Positions 7,561 through 52,382 of a DNA stretch of 64,000 nucleotides are shown piece by piece (the first letter of the stretch is position 1; each line of letters opens with the position of its first letter). A program made the translations under genes and the position numbers. Under the pieces are notes generated by a model, which was given only the letters and a program-made list of their open reading frames with translations, ran no database searches and had not been told where the DNA came from. Origin of the DNA: Oligoflexales bacterium. GTDB taxonomy: Bacteria; Bdellovibrionota_B; Oligoflexia; Oligoflexales; JAPPIL01. The stretch lies in NCBI GenBank assembly GCA_965215515.1, contig OZ244057.1, positions 864,001 through 928,000 of the forward strand, given 5' to 3'.

Positions 7561-8424
7561 TTATAGTTGCCGTAGTTTGGAGTCGAGACAATCACGTAGC
7601 ATGTCGCCGACCAGGTTGAAGGCCACCACGACGATGAGCACGCAGCAGCCAGGGAGAATTACCAGCCATGGTTCGCTGGCGATGTAGGGGCGGGCATCTG
7701 CCAGCATTGTGCCCCATTCGGGGGTGGGGGGTTGTGCTCCCAGTCCGAGAAAGCCCAGCGCGGCGATGTTGAGGATACCGTCGCTGAAGGCCAGGGTTGC
7801 TTGTACCGTTATCGGAGCGATGCAGTTAGGCAGGATATCGACACAGGCGATGCGCACGTGTCCCGCTCCGTAGCTGCGTGCACAGACGACGTAGTCCTTG
7901 ACTTTCTCTGCCATGACACTGGCACGCACTAAGCGCACAAAATACGGCACGGACACGACACTGATGGCGATGACGGTGTTAAAGAGGCTTGTGCCTAGAA
8001 TACTGACCACGACGATAGCCAGTAGGATACTGGGCAAGCTCAGCACGATATCGGTGATACGCATGATAACGATATCGGTCATCCCGCCGAGGTAGCCTGC
8101 GCATAGACCGATGGAGACACCGCAGATGGTTGAGGTTAGGACGATAAACAGCCCTAGCATCACCGACACTCTTGCACCGTGGAGGAGACGGCTGAAAATA
8201 TCTCGCCCGACATCGTCTGTGCCTAGCCAAAATTGTCCGCTCGGCTTCAGGAGGATAGCTTCGGTAAAGATGTGGTTCGGGTTATGAGGGCTGATAAAGT
8301 CGGCGCAGAGAGCGATGAGAAAAAAAAAGGCGATGATCGTCAGTCCTAGTAATGCTCCTTTGCTGCGGGAAAAATTACGCCAGAACTCTCGTAGGGGTGA
8401 TGGTGGTGTGATGGTAGTGTTCAT
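7561..8424 (-). CDS. dppC: Dipeptide ABC transporter permease
   Basis: LGTDDVGRD, GLGAQPPTPEWG. Confidence 0.9.
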   Translation of the reverse strand: MNTTITPPSPLREFWRNFSRSKGALLGLTIIAFFFLIALCADFISPHNPNHIFTEAILLKPSGQFWLGTDDVGRDIFSRLLHGARVSVMLGLFIVLTSTICGVSIGLCAGYLGGMTDIVIMRITDIVLSLPSILLAIVVVSILGTSLFNTVIAISVVSVPYFVRLVRASVMAEKVKDYVVCARSYGAGHVRIACVDILPNCIAPITVQATLAFSDGILNIAALGFLGLGAQPPTPEWGTMLADARPYIASEPWLVILPGCCVLIVVVAFNLVGDMLRDCLDSKLRQL

Positions 8425-9434
8425 GAAATGCGCAGCCGCGGGTTGATAAGTGCGTAGATGACATCGATGCTGAGGTTGATGATAACGATTAGAGTACCGA
8501 TCAGCAGGACACCGCCTTGAATGACGGGGTAGTCGCGGGCGGTGATGCTGTGCAAGATCCATTTACCGATTCCGGGCCAGGAGAAGATAGTTTCGGTCAG
8601 GATTGCTCCTGCCACCAGGGTGCTGACCAGCAGACCGATGACGGTGACGATGGGGATAAAGGCGTTGCGCAGCCCGTGAATCCAGTACACGGCAAACTTC
8701 GACAGGCCTTTGGCGCGTGCGGCGAGCATATAGTCTTCGCCGATAATTTCTAGCATACTCGCACGGGTGATACGGGCGATCAGGGCTAGGGGTATTGTGC
8801 CCATCGCCACGGCGGGTAGGATTAGGTGGCGCATGGCATCGCGGAACAGCTCGCCGCGATCTTCGCTCACTAGCAGTGTATCGATAAGCATGAAGCCAGT
8901 CACCGAGGGGACATCGTAGATCATGCCGATTCGTCCTGAGACGGGGGTCAGTTCTAGCCAGACCGAGAAGGTGATGATGAGGAGCAGTCCCCACCAGAAA
9001 ATCGGCATCGAATAACCGAGCAGGGAGGTGAACATGACGCTGTAGTCGAGCAGGCCGTTACGGTTGAGGGCTGCCAGCATCCCTAGGGGGATACCCAGCA
9101 CGATCCCGAACAGCATTGCCATCAGTGCTAATTCCAGTGTGGCGGGGAAGCGGGAGAAAAATTCGTGCAGCACGCTGGTTTTGGAGACGATCGAGTCGCC
9201 GAGATTGCCTTGCAGGGCGTTGCTGAGGAAGGCAAGGTATTGCTGTGGCAGGGGTAGGTGCAGACCGAGGGTGCGCTGCATGTGAGCGTAGGTTTCTGGG
9301 CTTGCGTATCGCTCTCCTAGCAGCAGCAGGACGGGATCGCCTGGTACCAGTCTGATCAAGCTGAAGGAGATCAGCGAGATACCCCACAGCGTGATAACGA
9401 ACACAACGACGCGTTTCAGCAGGTAACGTGCCAT
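8421..9434 (-). CDS. dppB: Dipeptide ABC transporter permease
   Basis: PGDP, RFPATLEL, ARAKGL, ETIFSWPGIG, RDYP. Confidence 0.92.
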   Translation of the reverse strand: MARYLLKRVVVFVITLWGISLISFSLIRLVPGDPVLLLLGERYASPETYAHMQRTLGLHLPLPQQYLAFLSNALQGNLGDSIVSKTSVLHEFFSRFPATLELALMAMLFGIVLGIPLGMLAALNRNGLLDYSVMFTSLLGYSMPIFWWGLLLIITFSVWLELTPVSGRIGMIYDVPSVTGFMLIDTLLVSEDRGELFRDAMRHLILPAVAMGTIPLALIARITRASMLEIIGEDYMLAARAKGLSKFAVYWIHGLRNAFIPIVTVIGLLVSTLVAGAILTETIFSWPGIGKWILHSITARDYPVIQGGVLLIGTLIVIINLSIDVIYALINPRLRIS

Positions 9435-9498
9435 GCACAGTTCTCTTGTCCGTTTTTACACGACTGGTGGTCGCTTACCATAGCGCGGCGTGTCTGGC

Positions 9499-9518
9499 AA
9501 TGATAGTGGGCCTAGCCT
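9499..9518 (+). repeat. Putative inversion site S1 (AATGATAGTGGGCCTAGCCT)
   Basis: Identical to the reverse complement of 10487-10506; 19/20 identical to 11894-11913. Confidence 0.8.
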
Positions 9519-9725
9519 AAAGTCTACGTCTCTTGTGCCGCAGGTCGACAAGCACCACCAACTGAGATGGAAACAGCAGTAGATGGAAACGTAGAACAGT
9601 GTGATGATAATAATGCTGGTACAGACGGCACTCAGTGTACAATCGTTGCTACCGATAGTGAAAAATGCACTGTGGTGGTTAAAAGCGGAGATGTAAGTGT
9701 CATGAAAAGTTTGGATTTGTCGTAA
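9499..9725 (+). pseudogene. Silent lipoprotein C-terminal cassette A (no start or signal peptide; 1-nt frameshift at AAA 9519-9521)
   Basis: NDSGPSL followed, with one extra A, by KVYVSC...CTVVVKSGDVSVMKSLDLS*; acidic and Cys-containing like the other cassettes. Confidence 0.65.
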
Positions 9726-9747
9726 TTATTGATCTGCGCAAAGAAAA

Positions 9748-9773
9748 GGAGGAGGAGCGCATGCCTCCTCCTC
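9748..9773. terminator. Hairpin between convergent cassettes A and B (probable bidirectional terminator)
   Basis: GAGGAGG...CCTCCTC stem with an A-run on the left. Confidence 0.6.
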
Positions 9774-9792
9774 GTGTTTGGCAAGGACTCCC

Positions 9793-10614
9793 CTAACCCG
9801 CTGCTCCAGTTACGTCGATTGTTTCCGTTACTTCACTGCCGCTCTCATCGTTAATTGATGCAGCTACGGTGCAAGTGTACGTTGAGCTGTCTGCTAGTTC
9901 GTTGCTGCTATCATCAAGCGTGATACTAGCGGTGTACTCCCCGTTAGTACCAGTGCCCATGTTTACAACTCCTCCAACTCCTGCATCAATGTTGCTGTTG
10001 TCCACACAAGACCAAGACACACTTAAATCATCACCTTCTATACTCCCTGTAACCATAACCTTGGCCCATACTACTGTTCCTTCAGTGACTGCACCAGCAT
10101 CAGCAGCACGCTCACCACCAATAGCGTCGCTGCCATTGTCGTCGTGGATAGCCAAAGTCAGGGTAGGAGTTCCATCATCCCCGTCGCTCGCAGCCTTAAT
10201 TTCAAACTCAACTTCCTTTGCCTCTATCTTCTCACCGCCGAGGGTGGCTGAGGCATTAGCTGTGCATTCTACCGCAGTGCCGTGATCGCCGAGATCAATG
10301 TCACCAAAATCCGCTTTACCAGCCTTAGCCTTCATCTTTTTTTCAACAGCTTCTTCATCTCCACACGCGACAGTCAGGGTTACTTCAGCAGTTTTGTCAG
10401 CATCAGCATCACTAGCGATGCTGACTGTAATGGCTGCACTTTCACCGCCATCTCCCATGGTGACATCACCGATTGTGCCGATAGCCAGGCTAGGCCCACT
10501 ATCATTAGTTTCTGTCCCTTCTTTGTTGTCATCATCCTCTGTATCACAGCCGCTCAGAGCTACAGCAGCCGCGATGACCCACACCATCCTCAAGAACCAA
10601 ACTCTAAACGACAT
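9793..10614 (-). CDS. Variable acidic lipoprotein: constant N-terminus plus cassette B (two Ig-like Cys-paired domains inferred)
   Basis: Lipobox LSGC; first 43 aa identical to 11786..12592, then diverges exactly at the NDSGPSL site. Confidence 0.8.
   Translation of the reverse strand: MSFRVWFLRMVWVIAAAVALSGCDTEDDDNKEGTETNDSGPSLAIGTIGDVTMGDGGESAAITVSIASDADADKTAEVTLTVACGDEEAVEKKMKAKAGKADFGDIDLGDHGTAVECTANASATLGGEKIEAKEVEFEIKAASDGDDGTPTLTLAIHDDNGSDAIGGERAADAGAVTEGTVVWAKVMVTGSIEGDDLSVSWSCVDNSNIDAGVGGVVNMGTGTNGEYTASITLDDSSNELADSSTYTCTVAASINDESGSEVTETIDVTGAAG
10487..10506 (-). repeat. Putative inversion site S2
   Basis: Reverse complement is AATGATAGTGGGCCTAGCCT. Confidence 0.8.
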
Positions 10615-10900
10615 GATCTCTCCTCCGAAAAACAATTGTCTAAAATGTAAACATCATACTGAGTATCTAACCACACAACCGAGCTGCGCGCTACCCCTAT
10701 TCTCTCAAAAAGCGAAAAAAAATCCAACCTTGGGCGCAAAAAATATTTCTAAAATCTTCTTTGTGTCTGCTGAGGGAAGAATTTAAAAAACTGCAAGAGA
10801 ATGGCTGCAAAAACAAAAAACAGACTGCGAATGCCTCCCACTGCGTATGTTTGCATAATCGATAGCAGAGCCCGTCAGTTTGCTGCTCAGATCTTTTTGC

Positions 10901-11505
10901 ATGGACAAGATCGCGGTCAGCGGTAATGTAGCGCACCGTGCTGATTGTGAGCGCATCACCACCGAATGTGTGCGGGCGCGTCCGCCGTAAAATTTCACCC
11001 CATCGAGGAACGTGCCCGTGGTCATCCCCGTCGCCCGCGCCACGAACGATTGATCGACGAGGTGCGTAAGCGGGGGCGTCGGATTTTTCTGATCGGCGAT
11101 GGTGATACCCATCGTCGCGGGCTACGGGCTTGCCACGGCCAATCCTTGACTCGGACATCGAGCGTCCCTGCTCGGTGTTGGCGGTGCACCTGAGGGTGTG
11201 TTGGCTGCCGCTGCCTTGCGGTGTATGAACGGCGATTTTCAGGGACGCTTGATTTTCGGCAGGAGGAGGAGGAAGCCCGTGCCCGCGACATGGGTATCGC
11301 CGATCCCGCTCGGGTTTACAAAATCGACGAGCTTGCTTCTGGCAACGTTATGTTTTGTGCGACGGGGGTGACCACGGGCACGTTCCTCGATGGGGTGAAA
11401 TTTTACGGCGGACGCGCCCGCACACATTCGGTGGTGATGCGCTCACAATCAGGCACGGTGCGCTACATTACCGCTGAGCACGACTTGACCCGCAAAAAGA
11501 TCTGA
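10901..11505 (+). CDS. glpX: Class II fructose-1,6-bisphosphatase, C-terminal part only and garbled as assembled
   Basis: MDKIAV (10901-10918), [59 protein letters not shown]. Confidence 0.85.
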
Positions 11506-11785
11506 GCAGCAAACTGACGGGCTCTGCTATCGATTATGCAAACATACGCAGTGGGAGGCATTCGCAGTCTGCCTTTTTGTTTTTGCAGCCATTCTCTTCG
11601 GCACGTTTTTTAAATTCTTCCCTCAGCAGACACAAAGAAGATTTTAGCTCAAATATTTTTTGCGCACCAAGGTTGGATTTTTTTTCGCTTTTTGAGAGAA
11701 TAGGGGTAGCGCGCAGCTCGGTTGTGTGGTTAGATACTCAGTATGATGTTTACATTTTAGACAATTGTTTTTCGGAGGAGAGATC

Positions 11786-12592
11786 ATGTCGTTTAGAGTT
11801 TGGTTCTTGAGGATGGTGTGGGTCATCGCGGCTGCTGTAGCTCTGAGCGGCTGTGATACAGAGGATGATGACAACAAAGAAGGGACAGAAACTAATGACA
11901 GTGGGCCTAGCCTGATGGTCGCTTTTGACCCAGCAACCCCTGAAGCTGGAGCAGAAGCTACAGTCGTAGTAACTGTCAAAGATGGTGAAGCCGATGACAA
12001 GATCAATATCGGCGTTATGTGCGGCAAGAGCGAAACACTGGCCGCGCAAGATTATGAAGTTAAAGACAACAAAGCGACCAGCGCTCAGTTTGGTGTTCCT
12101 GAGGCTGGAGGGGCAAAGATAACCTGCACCGCGACTGCTTCAGGTAAAGTTGGGGATAAAGACCTAAGCGAAGAAAAGTCTTTCGACATCGACGTGGCTG
12201 GCAGCAATGAGGAGGAAGCCGCTGCTCCGACACTACGATTTCAACCTGATTCTACTAGTGAGCTAGATGCATTAGAACCAGGTGCGACTGAAACTCCGGA
12301 GATTAGTGTTGAAATCATCGACGATGCAGGCAGGGTAGATGGTGATAGTACTTTAGATGTGACCCTATCTCTAACCTGCGGTGTAGATGAAATTGACCTC
12401 AACGGCAACAACACCCCTGGCAATGCCGCAATAATAGCAGCGGTGGCGGGTGTGGCAACTTTCCCCCCTATGTCGAACCTGAAGGAATTCACCGCTGGTA
12501 AATGTACTCTGAAGGCCGAAGTCGGCACTGAGGGCCAACCAGATTATCGCGTAAAAGAGTATGAGCTTACCATCGTCGCCCCCACCGCCTAA
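11786..12592 (+). CDS. Variable acidic lipoprotein: constant N-terminus plus cassette C
   Basis: GGAGGAG RBS; lipobox LSGC; two beta-rich domains each with a Cys pair. Confidence 0.85.
   Translation: MSFRVWFLRMVWVIAAAVALSGCDTEDDDNKEGTETNDSGPSLMVAFDPATPEAGAEATVVVTVKDGEADDKINIGVMCGKSETLAAQDYEVKDNKATSAQFGVPEAGGAKITCTATASGKVGDKDLSEEKSFDIDVAGSNEEEAAAPTLRFQPDSTSELDALEPGATETPEISVEIIDDAGRVDGDSTLDVTLSLTCGVDEIDLNGNNTPGNAAIIAAVAGVATFPPMSNLKEFTAGKCTLKAEVGTEGQPDYRVKEYELTIVAPTA
11894..11913 (+). repeat. Putative inversion site S3 (AATGACAGTGGGCCTAGCCT)
   Basis: 19/20 match to S1 and S2. Confidence 0.8.
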
Positions 12593-12598
12593 CAAACT

Positions 12599-12629
12599 GG
12601 AGAGAGGAGGCACACGGCCTCCTCTCTCC
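12599..12629 (+). terminator. Hairpin downstream of cassette C
   Basis: GGAGAGAGGAGG/CCTCCTCTCTCC 12-bp stem directly after the stop codon. Confidence 0.6.
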
Positions 12630-12725
12630 GTCATGCCCACATAGAGAGCGAAGCCTCCGCGGGTTTTTAGCCTAGCATTTTGTTTTCTCGCCATCGCTTC
12701 TGTATAATGATCCCGATGCGAGGAG

Positions 12726-13580
12726 GTGCGGGTGGCAAACGAGCGTGTCTGCCCACTGCGTTATCAGCAACCCTGTTGTCGGGGCACGGGTTACGTGGTG
12801 CGGCCTGAAGGAGGTGTGGCACAAGCCGAGCGCTGTGTATGCGTTTTGCGTTGCCCGCTGTGCGTAGGCAGCAACCTACTCCCCATCGAGGGCGTAAGCC
12901 GAGTTTGTAAACGCCCCCCTCCAGGAGAAGTGATCGCCCGCTTCAACCGTGCCGCCATCCCCGCCCGCTTCGCCAACGCTACTCTGGATAACTTCACCAA
13001 CTTGAACGACGACATGTCGCGCCACCTCAAGGCAATGCGAAATTGGCTACAAACCTTTCGTCCCGCTACCAGCAGAGGATTAATGCTGTCAGGGCCAGTC
13101 GGAGTGGGTAAGACGCACCTGCTAGTGGCACTGACCCGCGAACTGATAAAGAAAAACATCGACGTTAAATTCATCGATTTTTTTCAACTGCTGTCGATCT
13201 TGCGAGACGGTTTCGCCAGCGACCGCTCGGAATTGAGCACACTCGAACCACTGATGGCCGTCGACGTGCTGGCCATCGACGAAATCGGTAAAGGACGCAA
13301 CAGTGAATGGGAAAAAAATATCCTCGACCAACTTATCATGGGACGCTACAACCGCAACCGTACCGTGATCGCCTCAACCAACTACCGCCTGACCCTGCCC
13401 AGAACAGTCAAACGAGGATCATTCAACGTGCCCCTCGACACAGGAGAAGAGAGAGAACGCCCCCCCGACTACAGCCTGAAAGAATTACGCACGACGATCG
13501 GTGAACGCACCTACTCACGCCTAGTGGAAATCACGGATTTTTACGAACTGCACGGTAACGATTTTCGGCAGCTGCGATGA
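12726..13580 (+). CDS. DnaC/DnaI/IstB-like AAA+ ATPase with N-terminal Cys-rich Zn finger
   Basis: GPVGVGKT, LAIDEIG, IASTN, GERTYSRLVE, GNDFR; CCRGTG..CVC..CPLC. Confidence 0.85.
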   Translation: MRVANERVCPLRYQQPCCRGTGYVVRPEGGVAQAERCVCVLRCPLCVGSNLLPIEGVSRVCKRPPPGEVIARFNRAAIPARFANATLDNFTNLNDDMSRHLKAMRNWLQTFRPATSRGLMLSGPVGVGKTHLLVALTRELIKKNIDVKFIDFFQLLSILRDGFASDRSELSTLEPLMAVDVLAIDEIGKGRNSEWEKNILDQLIMGRYNRNRTVIASTNYRLTLPRTVKRGSFNVPLDTGEERERPPDYSLKELRTTIGERTYSRLVEITDFYELHGNDFRQLR

Positions 13581-14308
13581 TGCTGCGCCGCTGCCTGCTG
13601 CCCGAACTCAGCAACCACAAAGCACGCTCCCCCTTCATGGGACTCACCCGCAGCGAAACCCAGGCGACAGCCGACCACACCTGGTTCAACTGCTGCGCAG
13701 GCACAGGACAACAAACCACACCCGCAGGCATTAAACTCTGCCCCCTCGCACAACACTTGACAAAATTACAAACACTACTCGATCTCTACCAACGCGGCTG
13801 GGGGACAGGACATAAACAATTCCTCTACGCCGTGCTCAGCAAGATCGACCTACAAAAACTCGCCGCCCTCAACGAAGGAGCACAGGTGAGCGGACGACTG
13901 CTGACCTCCACAAACACCACCACCCCAGGGACACTGTGGCCATTAGCCGTCGCCGCTGCCTGGCGGTTCAATTTCCCCGTGCACTTCATCACCCTGCACA
14001 CCGCCAGCAAAGACAACCTACTACCATCCCGCCACCTCCCCAACACCCTGATACTAGTCGAAAACCACCTCCCCCCCTGGCACCCCGACACCATGCTCGA
14101 CTGCGAAGTAATCGTCAACTACTGCTACAATACCACCACCCCCCTGTGGTTCGATTTTGTGCGCAGCAAAGCCCCCCCCACCCCGACCGCAGCCAACGCC
14201 ATGCTAGCCAGCCTGCGCCAGCGCGTCGCGCGTCTGCGACGAGGTAGCCCCCTACCCTACTTCAGCCCCGAAGGACGAGCGAAACTGCGCGCCATGGGCA
14301 TGATCTAG
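13577..14308 (+). CDS. Hypothetical protein, possibly a degenerate P-loop fold
   Basis: Start overlaps the ATPase stop; LILVEN resembles a decayed Walker B. Confidence 0.55.
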   Translation: MMLRRCLLPELSNHKARSPFMGLTRSETQATADHTWFNCCAGTGQQTTPAGIKLCPLAQHLTKLQTLLDLYQRGWGTGHKQFLYAVLSKIDLQKLAALNEGAQVSGRLLTSTNTTTPGTLWPLAVAAAWRFNFPVHFITLHTASKDNLLPSRHLPNTLILVENHLPPWHPDTMLDCEVIVNYCYNTTTPLWFDFVRSKAPPTPTAANAMLASLRQRVARLRRGSPLPYFSPEGRAKLRAMGMI

Positions 14309-15615
14309 CGCGACCTCCCCCACGGCCATGACAAGCCTGACACACCGAAATTAAACCGTGAGCCACCAGGCGTACATAGTTCGAGAGAACCTCCGAGACC
14401 GCGAGAATCGGCTCTGACCTGAAAATCGCACAGCGTAGCCCACTGACAGGGGCTATGGACATGCGTTTGGTGTCCGAGTGGCACACAGTACGAGTAGTAG
14501 AGTTGAGGATCGAAAGTTGCCGTGTAGCCTCGGTCACAGTAACACCGCCCGAAGGGATTACCATCTTTGTACGTGCCTCTCCCTCTCTCCCATCGATGCG
14601 TGGGGCCAGGGCTGAGGGCATGCTCCTCGCAACGAATGCGCTCGTATTCACGCTTCGGAATCGGGGGGGAATGCCCTCCCAATCCGGTTTCTACCGACAC
14701 CATGCCCCCTTCAATTATTATCGTTTCCTTACCTATGCGGGGGTCCAACGAGTCGCGCCGACAGATGATCGGTTGCTGAAACTCCCCGAAATGGACGCCG
14801 CCAGAAGCTTGACACTTCCCGCCAATAAACCTCATACCCTGCAGTACGCATCTCAGCTCTTCTGACGACTCTGGTATCGTCGTGACGAAGTCATCTCCCA
14901 AATCGAGACACGAACCCCGAAACCACACTCCTTGGCGGCAGTTACAACGCCCCCCGTTATAACTTACGCCGTAGAGATCTCGGCACATGAGCTCCATCCC
15001 AGCTTCGGCGACTGGCCCTAGGCAACCACCGAAGCTGGGATGGAACAAGGATAGCGGGTCGTCGCACACACAAACACCGTGGTCCTGCCCGTGAAATGTT
15101 GCTCCCGTGCCACACATCATCTTGGTATGATGCCACACGATAGGCTCGCATTGCCCCGTCAAGGCATTGAACTGTCGCTCGCCATCGCACGAGCAGAATC
15201 CAGCATGATTCCACTTCGCCATTGCTCGTTGGCAGGCGCTTTGCAGTTGCGGCGCGCCGAACCCCTGCCGATTACCAGACTGCACGCCGCAGGGTGCATG
15301 CATATTGCTACTGTCATATATACTGCCGTTAGCACACAGGCACGTGCCGTCGGCTTGCAAGCGTGCGCCGCCGTAGCATTGCTTGTCGTGCTGGCACTGA
15401 AAATCATAAGCACCCGCGCCACTAGGTACTACTTTGCGATAGCCATGCTTACATACACACTCGTCACCTACCCAAACTGTGTTGCTGATTTTCCGACAGG
15501 CACTTCGTTGTCCTCCGTCGCCTTTCCCTCCGTCTGGGCAACTGCTGCTCAGCACTGCTGACAGCACTACCGTAGCGAGTGATACCGTCGTCCGAACTGC
15601 CACTGCACACCTCAT
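14305..15615 (-). CDS. Cys-rich secreted lipoprotein with EGF-like repeats
   Basis: Hydrophobic leader ending LSSSC; six CxC modules (CVCKHGY, CLCANG, CSCDG, CVCDD, CNCRQG, CYCDRGY). Confidence 0.7.
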   Translation of the reverse strand: MRCAVAVRTTVSLATVVLSAVLSSSCPDGGKGDGGQRSACRKISNTVWVGDECVCKHGYRKVVPSGAGAYDFQCQHDKQCYGGARLQADGTCLCANGSIYDSSNMHAPCGVQSGNRQGFGAPQLQSACQRAMAKWNHAGFCSCDGERQFNALTGQCEPIVWHHTKMMCGTGATFHGQDHGVCVCDDPLSLFHPSFGGCLGPVAEAGMELMCRDLYGVSYNGGRCNCRQGVWFRGSCLDLGDDFVTTIPESSEELRCVLQGMRFIGGKCQASGGVHFGEFQQPIICRRDSLDPRIGKETIIIEGGMVSVETGLGGHSPPIPKREYERIRCEEHALSPGPTHRWERGRGTYKDGNPFGRCYCDRGYTATFDPQLYYSYCVPLGHQTHVHSPCQWATLCDFQVRADSRGLGGSLELCTPGGSRFNFGVSGLSWPWGRSR

Positions 15616-15738
15616 AACACCAGTCACCTGCGCTGTCGGCGAAAATGAGGCACAGCCTTAGTTTTATCTTGCAGGGAGGAAAACTATGCCTGAGGGGTGT
15701 CGGATGCGGCCAGGTCTACCCGACTGCGGCGACTAAAA

Positions 15739-16695: not shown

Positions 16696-17097
16696 CTAAT
16701 GTTTGGAAAATGCAATTAACTCGGCACTTACCTCCGCTAAACCAAGCGACAGTGCCTTAATCGAACCCTCCAACTCGTTGAGATCGAGGTTCTGCAACTG
16801 CAACGTGTCACGGAAATAAACCCGCTTCCCCTCCTCGTCGAGCACAAACGCACCGTGCACCAGCACACGATTCATCTGCAGCAAACGACCGTAAAAATGC
16901 ACCAGCCCCTGCGAAGGCACATCCATAATAAACTGCTCAAGAATAACAATCGGGTCCTCGACATCGATCACGAGATTGTTAATGCCATTATCCTCATCCT
17001 GCACTACAAACAAGTCATCATCAGGAACTTCCCTAACAATCGCAATCCCCAACTCATTGAGATAACCCTTGACCTTAATAAAACCAGCCGTATCCAT
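16696..17097 (-). CDS. YbjN/CesT-like chaperone-fold protein
   Basis: LLQMNRVLVHGAFVLD, FRDTLQLQNLDLNEL; lies upstream of pspA. Confidence 0.75.
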   Translation of the reverse strand: MDTAGFIKVKGYLNELGIAIVREVPDDDLFVVQDEDNGINNLVIDVEDPIVILEQFIMDVPSQGLVHFYGRLLQMNRVLVHGAFVLDEEGKRVYFRDTLQLQNLDLNELEGSIKALSLGLAEVSAELIAFSKH

Positions 17098-17514
17098 CAC
17101 CGTCCTCCGCCTATTAAAGCAAGCATACCCCCAACAATAACATAAAGATACAGAAAAAACAGCCCTACCCTTCCCCCACAATAAATTTATCGCCAGAGAA
17201 AAAACTTTACCTGGCTGGCTAGTCAGTTTACACTAGTAAGTAGGAATAAGCATTGCACTATTGAAAGCGGTGGCGAACAACGTGGCTGGCGTGTGGGCGG
17301 GTTTCAATTTCACGGCGGGGGTATGTTATGTCGCTAGAGTGAGGATAGCGCAGGGCGATACTCTTGTCATCGTGCGGGTTGTGTAGTATGATGGTGGGTA
17401 GACAATAAGTCACAGCAGTGCTCAGCCCCCGCCGCATGAGGATCAGGTTACGTGTGTTCTGTTGCTCGCTGACTGTGCGAGCAATGTTCAACCTCTGGAA
17501 GGGAGATAACTGGT

Positions 17515-48212: not shown

Positions 48213-51200
48213 ATGAAGAATATAATTGCGCAAAAAATTCCCCCTGCGGGTTTAAGCAAACGCTGCAATCGTGCCAACAAATTTAAGATAACTCGCAGCA
48301 AGGATGGTTTTGGGTTTCACGTCTATGTGCTTGAGAATACTGCACGGCGAGAAAAAATTAACATCAGTCGTTTTATTTTCGATCGTTTTCGTAGCGCTCT
48401 TAAGACGGTTGAAAAATCATGGCAAAGACGTGAGTTTCCACCCGAGGCAAAAGTTTTCTATCGTTCAGAAGTACATTTTATCATCAGCCAAAAATTAAAT
48501 GAAAAACATCAATATCTCATTCAGGAAATAGATCACAAGGGTGACACGGCAGGTTACATGTCGTTTGATATCGATGCTGTTGAGGCACTCACTAAGCTTC
48601 TTTATCATCACAAATTATTTCATCCCAATGATTTACTTAATCGTTTAATTGGGTATCACAAAATTTTCCGTTTTAGTTTTGCGGAGAGTACCGATAGTAT
48701 TACCAGCAAGCTGGTCATCAAAAACGATTTGTTGTGTTCGGTAGAGGGCTACAAGAAAAAGCTCAAACCGCGTTTTGCCAGCAAAATTGTTCCTTTTCTA
48801 GGGGGCAGTGCTCCGTCTACGTCGCCTGCGATGGATCTTGCTAAGGTTAAGCAGCAGAATTTTTTCAAGTCTCGTCTGGCAGAGAAGGCGGTAGCTCATA
48901 ATGCGGCAGTCAATTACGACCAGCTTTTTGAGCCTGAGGAAAAAGTTGTTGAACCTAAAAGCGAACGAACGAGTAAGCTCAATGAGCAGCGTATTTTATT
49001 ACCTCTTCACGCTCAGGATGTTAAAAACTTCACTGAAGTGCCTTTTATTTGTGAGTTTACAACAGGTGATTTCAGTGATTTTTTGCAGTTTGTTGGCCGC
49101 GAGCGGCACGGTGAGTTTTTGTTAGGCTTTGAGATAATCGACTGTCTTTTTAAGCAGTCGGGGAGTATGAAAACTTTTAAATTTCCTCTCTATTATATGA
49201 AGGTAACTTTGAAGGAGTCTGGCAAGGAAATTATCATTGAGCCAGTTGAAGACGGAGTTTTTTATCTCAATCACCTTGCTCTTGCTAACCTTATCGAAAA
49301 ATTTTCTAAAAATAAATCTGCTGACAACATCAATAAATTTTTCAAAACTTTGCTGGCACAGTACATGACTGTCGATGAAAAGCCGACACGTGTTTATCTA
49401 TCCCGTATGCTGCCTATAAATGAAGAAATTTTTGCATTGGTGCGTAAGATTCTCTTCGGTACACCTGAGGAGCGGGGTAAGGGTGGTATTCTTTTCAATC
49501 TCACTACGATAGGGGCGGAGATTGATCTCGATAGTGTTTATCTCTATCGTTCAGCGAAAGTGCAGGCATTGATGGCATTAAGTCTTGAGCATGATTTGGA
49601 TGAAATTTTGACTATTGCCTACGAGCATCCGCAGCGTTTCTATCACTCTAATCTGGGTAATTTTCTTTCTCCCGAAACATATGTGCCTGTCAGGGGAATT
49701 TTTTCTGAGCGAGCATGGGTGCCTAAGGCCTTACCAAAAAGTTTCAGCACTTTGTTGAAAAAACTTGATGAGCATAATTTTCTGTTGCTTGAGGGACCGC
49801 CTGGCACGGGGAAGACGCATTCAATTTTAAAGCTGTTGATTCACTGTATATGTATTAACAAAAAAATTCTCGTTGTCAGCGACCAGCATAGTGCCATTCA
49901 TGCGTTGCTTGAGCCGCTGAAGGAGTTTGCTCACCAGGGCAGTAGTGATACGCAGAACATCGCCAACATTATTGCCCAGAGTATTAAGGTCATAGACCAC
50001 ATACCCGCAAGGGATAGTTCGCTTTCGGCATGGGCAAGCAGCTTGAAAAAAATGTTGACCACCAACAAGTTGATCGAGCATCTTAGCGAAGATCCTCCTA
50101 ATTATAATGTGCAAATAAAGCAAATAGATAATGACATGCAGGCACTGAAGGAGAAACTGCAAGAAACAATAAAGCAAAATTTGTCGCCTCGCAACTATCA
50201 CGAGTCTACCGCTAAGGATATTGAAAGTATCATAAATTTTATTCGTTTTTGTGGGTATAGCCGCCGGAGCGGAAAAAACAGGGAGCGTAACACTTGGAAC
50301 AGAAAGTTAGTTACGGAATTCATGGCGATGCGCAAAAAGCTGCTCAAATTTGGGAGCTTGTACCGCTTTTTTCGTTTTACTAACTCATTATCTGAGTACA
50401 ATCAAGAAATGTTGATGACCCGTGAGTTTATCAACAAAATGCTCAAGATCAAACCGAAGAATGTGTGCAAGCTTAACCTGGTTTACGAGAGAAAGCTTGA
50501 CAATGCGGTCACTGCTTATTTTTTAAAAGAGTGGCAACGTTCTTTCCCTGTCCGCAAATCTGGATTAGCACGTGCTTTGCGTTATTTTACTGCGCTGATA
50601 CGGCATCCATTGACAGGACGTTTGAAGAAAATACGTCGTATTTTAAACAATCAGCTTGCCTTATTGCAGAGTGCTGATAGCAAAGTGATTTTTCAGATGA
50701 ATAAAATTCACCATTACCTGCGTGCTCGGAAAGAGCAAGCATCGTGCTTAGCTTATGATATTTTTGTTAAAAATGAGGGCAAAGTTGCTAAACGTAAGCA
50801 AAAACATACAGAGACGGCGCAGGATATTTTGCAAGTTATGGAGCAGCGGCAAGACGAGCGTGATCGTCTCGTCAAGATGCGTTTTTTACTTAATCTTACT
50901 AATATTGCCAGTAAAGCCCAGCATTCTGCGGGAGATGGAAAACCCGACCCTTTGACTACTATTGCCGCTTTGTGCGATAATCTTGGCAGCTATGATGCGT
51001 TGGAGATGGCTTTGCCTGTCTTGAATGATTTGAAAGAAAAGCTGATGGAAATATTTCCTATTTGGATATGTCGCAAGCAAGCCGTGCCGTTCCTTTTTCC
51101 TTGTGCAGAAAATATTTTTGATCTAGTCATCGTCGATGAAGCCACTCAATGTCGTGTCGATGATGCTTTACCTTTGTTGTTTCGTGCCTCTAAACTGTTG

Positions 51201-52382
51201 GTAGTAGGTGATGATAAACAAACAGTACTGGCAAAAAATTCTGCCCTTGATGACTATTTATTTCAGGAGTTTGGGCTTGATGAGCACTTGCGAAAAACAC
51301 AGGGACAGGGGTTAAAAGGTGGTGGTTCGCATATTTTTGGCTTGATTAAACAAATCAAGCAAGCGTCTCTTATGCTTGACGAGCATTACCGTTGTCCGCC
51401 AGAAATTATTGCCTACTCAAACCACTATGTTTATCATAACGACTTAAAAATGATGCAATGGGGTACTCGTGATGCTGTTGTCGTTGATTATAGTGAAGAG
51501 CATGCCGAAAAAATAACACGTCAAACACGCGGTATCTATAAAGGTATTGAGACCGATATGGTTGATCGCTTTCTGCTGTTTGTCGAAAATACGATTAAAA
51601 AAATTGAGCAAGAAAAAAACATAAAAATAAATGTCGAAAAAAATGTGGCATTATGCTATTTTTTGCTAAAAAATGAACCCTACCTTAAAGCCAAGAAGGG
51701 TGAGCTTTTGCGTCGTCTCAATAGAGGAGAGGACATTCTTGATGGTGCGGGAGCGGCGTTGCAAGGGAAGGAACGTGATTACATTTTTTATCTGTGGGAC
51801 ATCAATCGCAGTAACATGATGGCTTTTCGACAAGGCGATGAGGAAGACAAGCGTAAGGGTGAGTTGAATGTATTGATGAGTCGCCCTAAAAAGCGGGCCT
51901 ATCACTATTTGCATAAAAGTTTTGCCAGTTTAAAACACAACAGGGCTACGATCAGCGATTATTTGTGGAAAGCTTATCGTCAGCAGCAACGTGTCAAAGA
52001 ACGCAAAACTTTTGTGCCCCGTGCCCAGAATCCTACTCCTAGCTTTACCCCCTGGCGCAGATACAGCGGGCAGTTGATTGAAAAAATTCTTGCCGAGAAT
52101 ATCAAAAAAGCCGACTTGCAAGTGCACTACAGTGTTAATATCGGTGACCCTGCTTACTGTATCGATTTGGTGCTGGAGGCGGGCAAGCACAGTATCGGTA
52201 TTATCGATATCAGTCGTTTTATGGAAGAAAGCAAACCTGCCGAGAGTATGATCGCTTATTATTTTCAAATCAAGCGCGCGACACCTAAGATTATCCCTTG
52301 GTTTACATTTATTAGCGACATCGCCAGCTGTCGTGACCGCGAACTGCGCGTCTTGGCAAAGACGATTGAGCGGCTCAGCTAA
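48213..52382 (+). CDS. Large SF1B (UPF1/DNA2-like) helicase with possible C-terminal restriction-endonuclease-like domain
   Basis: GPPGTGKT, FDLVIVDEATQ, VVGDDKQ, LDEHYRC, LQGKERD, LNVLMSRPK; C-terminal IDLVL..SIGIID. Confidence 0.88.
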   Translation: MKNIIAQKIPPAGLSKRCNRANKFKITRSKDGFGFHVYVLENTARREKINISRFIFDRFRSALKTVEKSWQRREFPPEAKVFYRSEVHFIISQKLNEKHQYLIQEIDHKGDTAGYMSFDIDAVEALTKLLYHHKLFHPNDLLNRLIGYHKIFRFSFAESTDSITSKLVIKNDLLCSVEGYKKKLKPRFASKIVPFLGGSAPSTSPAMDLAKVKQQNFFKSRLAEKAVAHNAAVNYDQLFEPEEKVVEPKSERTSKLNEQRILLPLHAQDVKNFTEVPFICEFTTGDFSDFLQFVGRERHGEFLLGFEIIDCLFKQSGSMKTFKFPLYYMKVTLKESGKEIIIEPVEDGVFYLNHLALANLIEKFSKNKSADNINKFFKTLLAQYMTVDEKPTRVYLSRMLPINEEIFALVRKILFGTPEERGKGGILFNLTTIGAEIDLDSVYLYRSAKVQALMALSLEHDLDEILTIAYEHPQRFYHSNLGNFLSPETYVPVRGIFSERAWVPKALPKSFSTLLKKLDEHNFLLLEGPPGTGKTHSILKLLIHCICINKKILVVSDQHSAIHALLEPLKEFAHQGSSDTQNIANIIAQSIKVIDHIPARDSSLSAWASSLKKMLTTNKLIEHLSEDPPNYNVQIKQIDNDMQALKEKLQETIKQNLSPRNYHESTAKDIESIINFIRFCGYSRRSGKNRERNTWNRKLVTEFMAMRKKLLKFGSLYRFFRFTNSLSEYNQEMLMTREFINKMLKIKPKNVCKLNLVYERKLDNAVTAYFLKEWQRSFPVRKSGLARALRYFTALIRHPLTGRLKKIRRILNNQLALLQSADSKVIFQMNKIHHYLRARKEQASCLAYDIFVKNEGKVAKRKQKHTETAQDILQVMEQRQDERDRLVKMRFLLNLTNIASKAQHSAGDGKPDPLTTIAALCDNLGSYDALEMALPVLNDLKEKLMEIFPIWICRKQAVPFLFPCAENIFDLVIVDEATQCRVDDALPLLFRASKLLVVGDDKQTVLAKNSALDDYLFQEFGLDEHLRKTQGQGLKGGGSHIFGLIKQIKQASLMLDEHYRCPPEIIAYSNHYVYHNDLKMMQWGTRDAVVVDYSEEHAEKITRQTRGIYKGIETDMVDRFLLFVENTIKKIEQEKNIKINVEKNVALCYFLLKNEPYLKAKKGELLRRLNRGEDILDGAGAALQGKERDYIFYLWDINRSNMMAFRQGDEEDKRKGELNVLMSRPKKRAYHYLHKSFASLKHNRATISDYLWKAYRQQQRVKERKTFVPRAQNPTPSFTPWRRYSGQLIEKILAENIKKADLQVHYSVNIGDPAYCIDLVLEAGKHSIGIIDISRFMEESKPAESMIAYYFQIKRATPKIIPWFTFISDIASCRDRELRVLAKTIERLS

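Follow-up and report, generated by a model that had tools for sequence, protein, structure and literature searches.

A probable gene-altering DNA inversion joining one lipoprotein leader to either of two cassettes in an Oligoflexales bacterium

Lipoprotein genes, repeats and a glpX truncated in the assembly

The window analysed here is a 64,000-nucleotide stretch of an Oligoflexales genome. Two open reading frames in it, at 9793-10635 (minus strand) and 11765-12592 (plus strand), encode lipoproteins with a common signal peptide, lipobox and acidic linker (43 amino acids from the ATG) and part exactly after a short site. A first-pass annotation had claimed this shared stretch with divergence at the end of the site, and the reading frames bear it out. 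The site spans codons ~31-43, and the frames of leader+A and leader+B are both open. The features of the locus are as follows.

9499..9518, plus strand: S1, the third 20-mer copy, standing alone and with the same letters as S2; its flanks on neither side are common to the other copies
9516..9725, plus strand: third-cassette remnant comprising the final ~69 codons of the second domain in a family member, one base off the frame of S1
9739..9780, no strand: hairpin separating cassette A from the convergent remnant, resembling a terminator on the minus strand (9773-9746)
9793..10486, minus strand: cassette A, a variable mature lipoprotein part with two Ig-like domains, outside the putative invertible segment (from alignments)
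10487..10519, minus strand: left 33-bp inverted repeat (20-mer S2 and 13 nt); the contig graph branches at 10519/10520
10520..11034, minus strand: left assembled copy with leader, upstream region and 3' end of glpX; the reads support a single copy, which the outer part (to 10820-10900) matches
11035..11505, plus strand: glpX (fructose-1,6-bisphosphatase class II), Pfam positions 162-307 alone, the first half missing in the assembly
11506..11785, plus strand: intergenic region upstream of the leader, with presumed promoter; 11580-11666 differs by indels from the read-supported version
11786..11880, plus strand: leader with signal peptide, lipobox Cys23 and acidic linker, the constant part, on the putative invertible segment (from sequence and alignments)
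11881..11913, plus strand: right 33-bp inverted repeat (13 nt and 20-mer S3); the contig graph branches at 11880/11881
11914..12592, plus strand: cassette B, an alternative variable mature part (from sequence, alignments and a structure model)
12599..12629, no strand: hairpin after cassette B (from sequence and terminator scan)

The 20-mer AATGAYAGTGGGCCTAGCCT is present at 9499-9518 (plus strand, S1), 10487-10506 (minus strand, S2) and 11894-11913 (plus strand, S3). S1 and S2 agree letter for letter, and S3 has a C instead of a T at position 6. The three copies described earlier were confirmed as non-random: at up to 3 mismatches the window holds 3 matches against 0.01 expected, and 3 were reached in 0 of 100 shuffles. 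A scan of the whole genome (2,180,710 bp, one contig) for further copies, as had been proposed, returned only these three at up to 4 mismatches. The same scan gave 0 matches each in the metagenome_contigs and genome_contigs collections, from which the genome's own records are possibly absent. Exact inverted repeats across the genome (at least 18 nt, 150-15000 bp apart) included IS-like and other repeats, none further with the 20-mer motif. Around the sites, the DNA of the paralog and of the relatives G001 and G002 showed no conservation past what the protein motif explains. Viewed by eye, the site has just a 4-nt dyad (ACTA..TAGT) around ATGA and no clear dyad symmetry.

S2 and S3 lie within 33-bp repeats, AGGGACAGAAACTAATGAYAGTGGGCCTAGCCT, which flank the segment as an inverted pair, are alike at 32 of 33 positions and have a longest unbroken identity of 18 nt. 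The first-pass annotation treated S2 and S3 as isolated 20-bp sites; in the assembly they instead terminate, on the outside, an inverted repeat of ~550 bp (10486-11034 / 11359-11914) whose arms include the leader, the region upstream of it and the 3' end of glpX. The outer 248 nt of its arms differ at the site's T/C alone, while the inner part is 94-99% alike with indels.

The two lipoprotein products are ~40% identical and carry tandem Ig-like domains, with no Pfam family above the cut-off. Cassette A is orthologous to a fixed gene in G002. The structure model of cassette B has a mean pLDDT of 71.6, with domain 1 above 90 and its beta sandwich at high confidence, and a fold search with the model returned only generic tandem Ig/FN3-like beta-sandwich matches. 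Scans for sigma-70 promoters and terminators found no excess over shuffles (4 vs 2.9±1.9 and 4 vs 3.3±1.9, respectively), and Rfam gave 0 matches over 9000-13200 at E ≤ 0.1.

Between S1 and S2, two convergent cassettes separated by a hairpin had been described. The convergent coding pieces and the hairpin (~9739-9780) are there, but the piece at S1 is a remnant. The lipoprotein frame read through S1 meets a stop after 20 codons, and the open frame at 9516-9725, one base off, matches P0016 over residues 210-251 alone, its last 42 residues (57% identity, E 1e-12, BLASTP). The frame shift and the match to just these residues make the piece a truncated, out-of-frame remnant and not the usable leaderless third cassette that had been proposed. 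S1 and its remnant are probably the fossil of a third cassette.

The glpX gene is whole in all three relatives searched, and in the window's genome it covers only Pfam positions 162-307. A search of the genome for a class I fructose-1,6-bisphosphatase (FBPase) found none, and PEPCK is present. Given these findings, glpX should be intact in the organism. Its residue numbering rests on Pfam positions, and the ~85-95 nt placed upstream of it on the segment are a rough estimate.

Junctions and depths in the contigs of four public runs

Read evidence was taken from the Logan contigs, not the raw reads, of four public runs (X1-X4) that represent at most three samples from one study. These runs may include the genome's own assembly data and so are not independent of the genome. 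Stretches without contig cover (11580-11807 and most of 10919-11030) were left out of the evidence.

In all four runs, the A-side contig stops at 10519 and the B-side contig starts at 11881. Each segment end has two 42-nt records, one with the window-type continuation (10490-10531; 11869-11910) and the other continuing with 12 letters that are missing from the assembly. The two 12-letter alternative ends, denoted X, are reverse complements of one another. Thus four junction types, leader-A, leader-B, X-A and X-B, were found in each of the four runs. They uphold two earlier claims, that an inversion swaps the C-terminal part on a constant leader and that the flipping segment carries both promoter and constant part. 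In X1, X2, X3 and X4, record depth was 19, 6, 50 and 4 for leader-A, 23.4, 3, 32.4 and 8.5 for X-A, 19, 5, 30.2 and 12.5 for leader-B, and 15, 4.3, 27.2 and 10.2 for X-B. These values are mean depths, with noise in the 42-nt records, as in X3, where leader-A and leader-B sum to 80 against 55. The T/C difference keeps to its cassette side in all contig records. No contig represents a single molecule spanning A, the segment and B.

The segment itself is covered by an unbranched 1427-nt contig that begins at 10502, passes through the leader and its upstream region and continues in glpX to 11031. It has no branches where the assembled arms differ or at the fold-back, which it does not follow. By comparison, a k=31 simulation of the window as assembled breaks at 10733 and beyond, with the arms at two copies. 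The depth of this contig against the A-side flank contig was 38.5/38.1, 8.8/9.0, 55/54.5 and 18.9/20.2 in the four runs, and so not twice that of the flank. The X-junction depths sum to 38.4, 7.3, 59.6 and 18.7, in agreement with the depth of the 1427-nt contig. In X1 and X4, depth bookkeeping for the bin 11808-11921 leaves 18 nt at this contig's depth, as expected if its far end is X followed by 11881-11898. From these lengths and depths, we infer that the segment is single copy, with X at its far end; the contig's final 579 nt would be the 5' half of glpX, ending in X.

Compared with the read contigs, the assembly at 11071-11260 contains 10 miscalls (substitutions), 13 extra letters and 1 missing letter. 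Applying the read-derived edits yields one continuous GlpX reading frame. The inner part of the left copy and the fold-back junction at 11034/11035 are probably artefacts, and for the two-leader arrangement of the first-pass annotation, too, the contigs of the four runs point to an assembly artefact.

At S1, a 3517-nt contig spans the site without branching in all four runs, and no recombination was seen there in their contigs. The suggested S1/S2 inversion was therefore not observed. Because the S1 cassette is a frame-shifted remnant, the claim of at least three variants is not borne out, and two variants are supported.

A probable switch with one leader and the competing explanations

We consider it likely that this locus is a gene-altering DNA inversion switch in which a single leader segment occurs in both orientations and that the assembly is a chimera of the two states. 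With two identical leaders, as the first-pass annotation assumed, an inversion between S2 and S3 would change nothing, so a switch makes sense only with the single leader to which the contigs point. In the proposed arrangement, a single-copy segment of ~1.43 kb between the 33-bp inverted repeats would carry, in one direction, glpX as a passenger, then the intergenic region, where the promoter is presumed to lie, and finally ~31 codons from the start of the lipoprotein gene. Cassettes A (minus strand, left) and B (plus strand, right) would stand on either side of it, and each would have a terminator hairpin of its own. One orientation would fuse the leader in frame to A and leave B next to the non-leader end X; the other would fuse the leader to B and place A next to X. 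Since orientation decides which cassette the leader joins, each cell would make one of two tandem Ig-like surface lipoproteins. Seen from the T/C difference, the crossover would fall towards the leader, within the 18-nt block. The sequenced population would contain both orientations, which the assembler would have collapsed into one fold-back with two leader copies, without the X end or the first half of glpX, and with a garbled consensus at the join. As in other invertons, flanking inverted repeats, coexisting orientations (at contig level, in one study) and an in-frame protein change were found.

It is very improbable, in our view, that the assembly is correct, with a genuine inverted duplication of ~550 bp, A and B as stable paralogs expressed side by side, a destroyed glpX, and alternative junctions contributed by a second co-resident strain with another middle segment. 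The window sequence itself speaks for such a duplication, the leader-A and leader-B records are compatible with it, and strains at 50:50 would also make leader depth equal to flank depth. However, under two strains two measures should vary together: the ratio of 1427-nt contig depth to flank depth, which stays at 0.94-1.01 in all four runs, and the share of leader-A among the A-side junctions, leader-A/(leader-A + X-A), which ranges from 0.32 to 0.67. The 1427-nt contig lacks the fold-back junction and runs 579 nt past 11031 with no re-entry into an arm. With 0-2 differences over ~2 kb, the flanks give no hint of a second strain; the garbled consensus coincides exactly with the join, and glpX is intact in the three relatives. 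A one-off inversion polymorphism, with two lineages fixed in opposite states coexisting in a host or habitat and no ongoing programmed switching, also appears improbable to us. The contigs prove only that both forms exist, and the samples, being from one study, may share one source population. Nevertheless, both forms occur in every one of the at most three samples, and the repeat lies in frame at the leader-cassette boundary, which makes both products complete genes. A third site with a cassette remnant also exists, and a sister species has an analogous inverted-repeat layout.

The inversion could be real and yet arise by general, RecA-type homologous recombination across the 33-bp repeat without a dedicated recombinase. 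The 64 kb without a recombinase gene would fit this, as would the perfect 442-nt repeat in G001, whose length suits homologous exchange, and the sap inversion of Campylobacter fetus is RecA-dependent. In Escherichia coli, however, 18 nt is shorter than the length usually needed for efficient RecA exchange, and here both orientations are found at intermediate shares in all four runs despite an identity of that length. The T/C difference was never found exchanged, and S1 is a sharp 20-nt island in unrelated flanks, typical of site-specific exchange. We regard the RecA route as unlikely though credible. Under the switch that we favour, the exchange would be catalysed by a putative site-specific recombinase encoded elsewhere.

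The sister species G001 (L018 7922-9683) has an expressed gene and a leaderless inverted copy, linked by the perfect 442-nt inverted repeat. Among the family proteins found, 2 of 20 are leaderless. Around the lipoprotein and glpX loci of G001-G003, there is no synteny with the window.

These results provide direct evidence, albeit at the level of contigs, that surface lipoproteins are phase-variable in an uncultured lineage of the Oligoflexales type. Among the 8 top-ranked of 8,607 full-text results of an either-term query, none joined "Oligoflexales" and "phase variation", which is a weak negative. The finding suggests that the cell surface in this lineage is under pressure from immunity, predators or phages, and it also serves as a warning that an inverton in mixed orientation can be assembled as a false inverted duplication in which one gene looks like two paralogs. 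Here the probable misassembly gave a housekeeping gene the appearance of being broken and left ~0.6 kb of genuine sequence out of a one-contig genome labelled "complete".

Recombinase candidates and comparison with known inversion systems

The first-pass annotation saw no recombinase gene in the 64 kb, and this holds: the genome has 1 PF00589 and 6 PF00239 profile hits, none of them inside the window, and Pfam scans of the window's reading frames found none either. IS110/Piv-family recombinases gave 0 hits in the genome, which is 93.9% complete, and the 1427-nt segment has no room for a recombinase gene. The PF00589 hit at 2016122, ~1.14 Mb off, is XerD-like and under the NCBIfam cut-offs; no Rci-like gene was found. 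The nearest PF00239 hit (838228-838662, ~35 kb from the locus) is of a 369-aa type. The only small serine recombinase in the genome, of 213 aa, is encoded 315 kb away at 559245-559886. Its nearest solved relative is the Gin invertase (4m6f, E 2.4e-14), and it is conserved in all three relatives at 64-81% identity. We consider it the best candidate enzyme for the inversion. Inverted repeats beside it show no likeness to the site, and our tests tie no recombinase to the site. Speculatively, and with low probability, this conserved enzyme could be a trans-acting housekeeping "master invertase" that acts on short asymmetric sites and drives surface-lipoprotein variation in an uncultured, probably host-associated Oligoflexales family, with the only detected FBPase gene as a passenger. 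The genomic context of that gene would then flip with each antigen switch.

The first-pass annotation likened the locus to the shufflon of IncI1 plasmid R64, in which the tyrosine recombinase Rci, encoded next to four or more invertible segments, acts on seven sfx sites to give many arrangements and the target is the C-terminus of PilV, the type IV pilus tip adhesin. The likeness holds for the layout: asymmetric short repeats mark the point where the constant and variable parts of a surface protein meet, and only one side of the site is common to all copies (at S1, the 20-mer alone). It fails in other respects, as the locus here is chromosomal, has three sites and no Rci-like gene, targets a lipoprotein that is no pilus adhesin, and shows one inversion. 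Simple two-site inversion is shared with the serine invertase systems Hin, Gin, Cin and Pin. Unlike in those systems, where the invertase gene lies beside or inside the segment, the small serine recombinase here is distant. Their 26-bp crossover sites consist of two inverted half-sites, and by eye no such dyad-symmetric site is evident here.

In the vsa locus of Mycoplasma pulmonis and the vsp / vpma loci of M. bovis / M. agalactiae, an adjacent tyrosine recombinase (HvsR / Xer1) serves many cassettes. The locus here is similar in having a single expression site (promoter and signal-peptide region), leaderless cassettes, a short site just past the leader and a variable surface lipoprotein as product; we found A and B joined to either leader or X, with a leader that depth indicates to be single copy. 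It differs in having two working cassettes and a remnant, no adjacent recombinase, and unrelated proteins. The sapA system of Campylobacter fetus likewise has a promoter-bearing invertible segment between two opposed homologous surface-protein genes, of which one is expressed. There, conserved 5' regions that extend over hundreds of bp serve as the repeats, and exchange depends on RecA, whereas here the repeat has 33 bp and the leader coding part itself is on the segment.

Parallels are also found in gene-altering programmed inversions, or 'partial intergenic invertons', in which inverted repeats lie inside coding sequence, both orientations occur per population and a protein part is exchanged (Milman et al. 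2023, PMC9881135; Chanin et al., preprint, 10.1101/2023.03.11.532203). According to these papers, some invertible regions have no recombinase gene nearby. More usually, a fixed 5' part is combined with convergent variable parts inside the segment; here the promoter and constant 5' part are on the segment, and the variable 3' parts are outside and divergent. Further differences are that a housekeeping gene, glpX, rides on the segment and that the lineage is Oligoflexales-type. The locus is best placed among the gene-altering programmed inversions, a known kind of switch, and is no R64 shufflon.

Organisation of the assembled lipoprotein locus

A pattern scan located the 20-mer AATGAYAGTGGGCCTAGCCT at three positions in the window, and a whole-genome scan allowing up to 4 mismatches found these to be its sole copies in the genome (one contig, 2,180,710 bp, 52.6% G+C). 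At up to 3 mismatches, 0.01 matches were expected by chance in the window, and none of 100 shuffles reached three. The scan and a comparison of the ORFs bore out the first-pass annotation in its three copies and its two lipoprotein ORFs splitting at the site:

9499-9518, + strand: 20-mer, site S1
10487-10506, - strand: 20-mer, site S2
11894-11913, + strand: 20-mer, site S3
9793-10635, - strand: lipoprotein ORF, leader and cassette A
11765-12592, + strand: lipoprotein ORF, leader and cassette B

The leader common to both ORFs consists of a signal peptide, a lipobox (Cys23) and an acidic linker (43 aa counted from the ATG). The ORFs split right after the site and are about 40% identical beyond it.

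Site S1 was found to be a sharp-edged 20-nt island with flanks unrelated to those of the other copies. The lipoprotein frame downstream of S1 meets a stop after 20 codons, while the frame shifted by one base is open across 9516-9725 and matches the final 42 residues of the family member P0016 (57% identity, E 1e-12). Because the frame is shifted and the match covers only these last residues, what had been proposed as a third cassette is a truncated, out-of-frame remnant.

S2 and S3, previously described as isolated sites, were instead found to be the outer ends of an inverted repeat of about 550 bp (10486-11034 and 11359-11914). In the outer 248 nt of the arms the sole difference is the T/C of the site; further in, they are 94-99% alike and carry several indels. 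Each arm contains the leader, some 260 nt lying upstream of it and the terminal 3' portion of glpX (fructose-1,6-bisphosphatase class II), and the 324-nt spacer between the arms is further glpX sequence. Of the 307 Pfam positions of glpX, only 162-307 occur in the genome, with internal frame breaks, and the gene is truncated by the assembled fold-back at 11034/11035. A truly broken glpX in the organism is unlikely, since the gene is whole, with an open frame of 317-333 aa, in all 3 of the relatives that were searched, a genome-wide search found no class I FBPase, and PEPCK is present in the window.

Junctions in public sequencing runs and a proposed inversion switch

We analyzed four public runs (X1-X4; one study, at most 3 samples) as Logan contigs, in which 84-87% of the words sampled from 9300-12700 were present. 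The contig graph was identical in all four. A 3517-nt contig spans at least 9300-10519 with 0-1 differences, passes S1 unbranched and stops at 10519; the B-side contig (4.7-26.5 kb) begins at 11881 and contains cassette B and beyond. Contigs drop rare variants, so the finding of no alternative junction at S1 in the four runs is compatible with rare events there. Two 42-nt records were found at each of the ends 10519 and 11881, one window-like, leading into the leader (leader-A, leader-B), and one alternative (X-A, X-B, named for X, the presumed non-leader end of the invertible segment, missing from the assembly). The alternative A-side record goes on with the 12 letters CGGGGTTTTGAG, the reverse complement of which precedes 11881 on the B side. 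In that junction context these letters do not occur in the assembly.

A 1427-nt record starting from 10502 agrees with the left arm as far as 10820-10900 and from there with the right arm and the spacer (reverse of 11571-11031), and extends 579 nt further, with only a 23-nt piece of the extension found on the stretch. The record runs unbranched through the positions at which the two assembled arms diverge, and the fold-back is absent from it; in a k=31 simulation, the window would give a two-copy unitig of 232 nt and, after it, repeated breaks.

Mean depths of contig records in runs X1, X2, X3 and X4
1427-nt record: 38.5, 8.8, 55, 18.9
A-side contig: 38.1, 9.0, 54.5, 20.2
leader-A: 19, 6, 50, 4
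X-A: 23.4, 3, 32.4, 8.5
leader-B: 19, 5, 30.2, 12.5
X-B: 15, 4.3, 27.2, 10.2

The sums of X-A and X-B (38.4, 7.3, 59.6 and 18.7 in X1 to X4) are near the depth of the 1427-nt record and those of leader-A and leader-B (38, 11, 80 and 16.5) fit more loosely in X2 and X3; such depths are means, noisy for 42-nt records, and serve not as copy numbers but as a hint agreeing with the graph topology. In X1 and X4, adding up the depth of bin 11808-11921 leaves a surplus over the listed records equal to exactly 18 nt at the 1427-nt record's depth. By this arithmetic on depths, the surplus is what one would see if that record ended, at its far side, in the 12 X letters followed by 11881-11898.

Compared with the contigs, the window carries 10 substitutions, 13 extra letters and 1 missing letter, confined to 11071-11260 (about 190 nt, 4 of 4 runs). 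Applying the read-derived edits turned the broken glpX part into a single continuous frame up to the normal stop; a consensus failure here creates false glpX frameshifts. The inner end of the left arm looks like a mosaic, because its patch 10896-10918 matches 23 nt sited just past 11031 in the contig. Position 11032 corresponds to glpX Pfam position 162, and by this numbering the unread 579 nt would hold about 161-165 glpX codons plus roughly 85-95 nt, which would leave no room for a further gene.

The simplest structure fitting the evidence would be a single copy of a segment of about 1.43 kb, running from the X end through glpX and the intergenic region to the leader. Inverted repeats of 33 bp, each made of 13 nt and the 20-mer and alike at 32 of 33 positions, would bound it, with cassette A to its left (-) and cassette B to its right (+). 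Within this structure, the sampled population contains the segment in both orientations. The leader would be fused in frame to A in one orientation and to B in the opposite one, and the unfused cassette would adjoin X and lack a start and signal peptide. The assembler appears to have merged both states into one fold-back, which would account for the leader duplication, the missing glpX half and the poor consensus. In the contig records the T/C difference was never separated from its cassette, which locates the exchange within the 18-nt block AGGGACAGAAACTAATGA or else at a fixed point. As to mechanism, we favour site-specific over RecA-type exchange, because only short stretches are identical (18 + 14 nt), each state has an intermediate share in every run, and the edges of S1 are sharp.

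Candidate recombinases

No PF00589 or PF00239 match lies inside the window, the nearest being about 35 kb off; a recombinase nearby is described as usual, not universal, by Milman et al. (PMC9881135). No IS110/Piv-type genes were found in the genome, which is 93.9% complete. The one PF00589 match in the genome is a 300-aa XerD-like protein at 2.016 Mb, below NCBIfam cut-offs. This XerD/XerC-like gene (G000:C1:2015756-2016658; 114 bits, cut-off 330) was the only tyrosine-recombinase-like gene found, and by eye the usual catalytic tyrosine motif is missing from the C-terminal end of its protein. PF00239 gave six matches:

559245-559886: small serine recombinase, 213 aa
125333-127126 and 1630742-1632550: two large serine recombinases, about 600 aa (597 and 602 aa)
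serine recombinase pair, 369 aa and 261 aa
1757878-1758597: serine recombinase copy with stop codons

The two large proteins are closely similar, and by eye their frames continue at the 3' end into sequence resembling tRNA; as integrases they probably belong to two related integrated elements. The gene with stop codons is a third copy. The 213-aa protein, kept in 3 of 3 relatives (64-81% identity), is only a candidate for the enzyme of the switch. Among solved structures, its nearest relatives are Gin invertase and the gamma-delta and Tn3 resolvases (E 2e-14 to 3e-11). Its whole length aligns with the Mpi-family model, at 43 bits far under the cut-off of 272. Some 170-400 nt upstream of its gene, both this genome and the sister species G001 have an imperfect inverted repeat (L002 1048-1282 and L025 1097-1329; arms of 21-23 nt, 74-76% complementary, about 190 nt apart).

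The lipoprotein family and comparison with known inversion systems

No Pfam or NCBIfam family matched the lipoprotein above cut-off. The family is small, comprising 20 proteins at E <= 0.001, all unnamed, two of which are the window's own; the leader is absent from 2 of the 20. Members are domain mosaics, such as P0003, with a B-like first and an A-like second domain. A model of cassette B from the 20-sequence alignment (mean pLDDT 71.6; residues 41-135 above 90) gives two predicted tandem beta-sandwich domains, with only generic Ig/FN3-like structural matches. A third paralog in the genome (G000:C1:735163-735950; L017 1498-2268), with its own leader and no 20-mer copy, is apparently a fixed gene. 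In G002, which like G001 is a congeneric genome, the cassette A ortholog is a fixed gene without repeats; beside the lipoprotein gene lies a gene of about twenty 21-nt tandem repeats (L019 9313-9966).

In G001 (locus L018), an expressed gene (7840-8775) and a leaderless inverted copy (8851-9597) have in common a perfect 442-nt inverted repeat (7922-8363 and 9242-9683) starting inside the signal peptide. The 878 nt between its arms contain two different C-terminal halves. This layout suggests that L018 7840-9683 is probably a second inversion switch in the same protein family, of classic layout. Positions 4000-14000 of L018 are dense in short dispersed repeat families (30-300 nt, direct and inverted).

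Elsewhere in the window we observed a cysteine-rich protein of 440 aa that falls in no Pfam family (14305-15627, -), a strong CesT_Tir_1 chaperone family match (16696-17178, -; E 1e-46) adjoining a PspA gene, and a 1389-aa protein (48213-52379, +) with AAA_11 and weak STAND-NTPase matches, which could be a defence-type NTPase.

The first-pass annotation had likened the locus to R64-type shufflons, of which it is not a member: Rci, pilV and a multi-segment array are all missing here. It is at best a possible member of the Hin/Gin family. The Mycoplasma vsa/vsp lipoprotein switches and the Campylobacter fetus sap promoter inversion are nearest to the present switch in logic. Uncommon, though not new in kind, are a promoter and constant part that travel on the flipping segment, cassettes that stay outside it, a passenger housekeeping gene, and the Oligoflexales-type lineage. 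The locus documents a case in which an inverton produced a false inverted duplication in a genome that looks finished. The gene-altering programmed inversions of Milman et al. (PMC9881135) and the "partial intergenic invertons" of Chanin et al. (10.1101/2023.03.11.532203) work like the present switch, and both papers state that systems of this sort often go by the name of shufflons.
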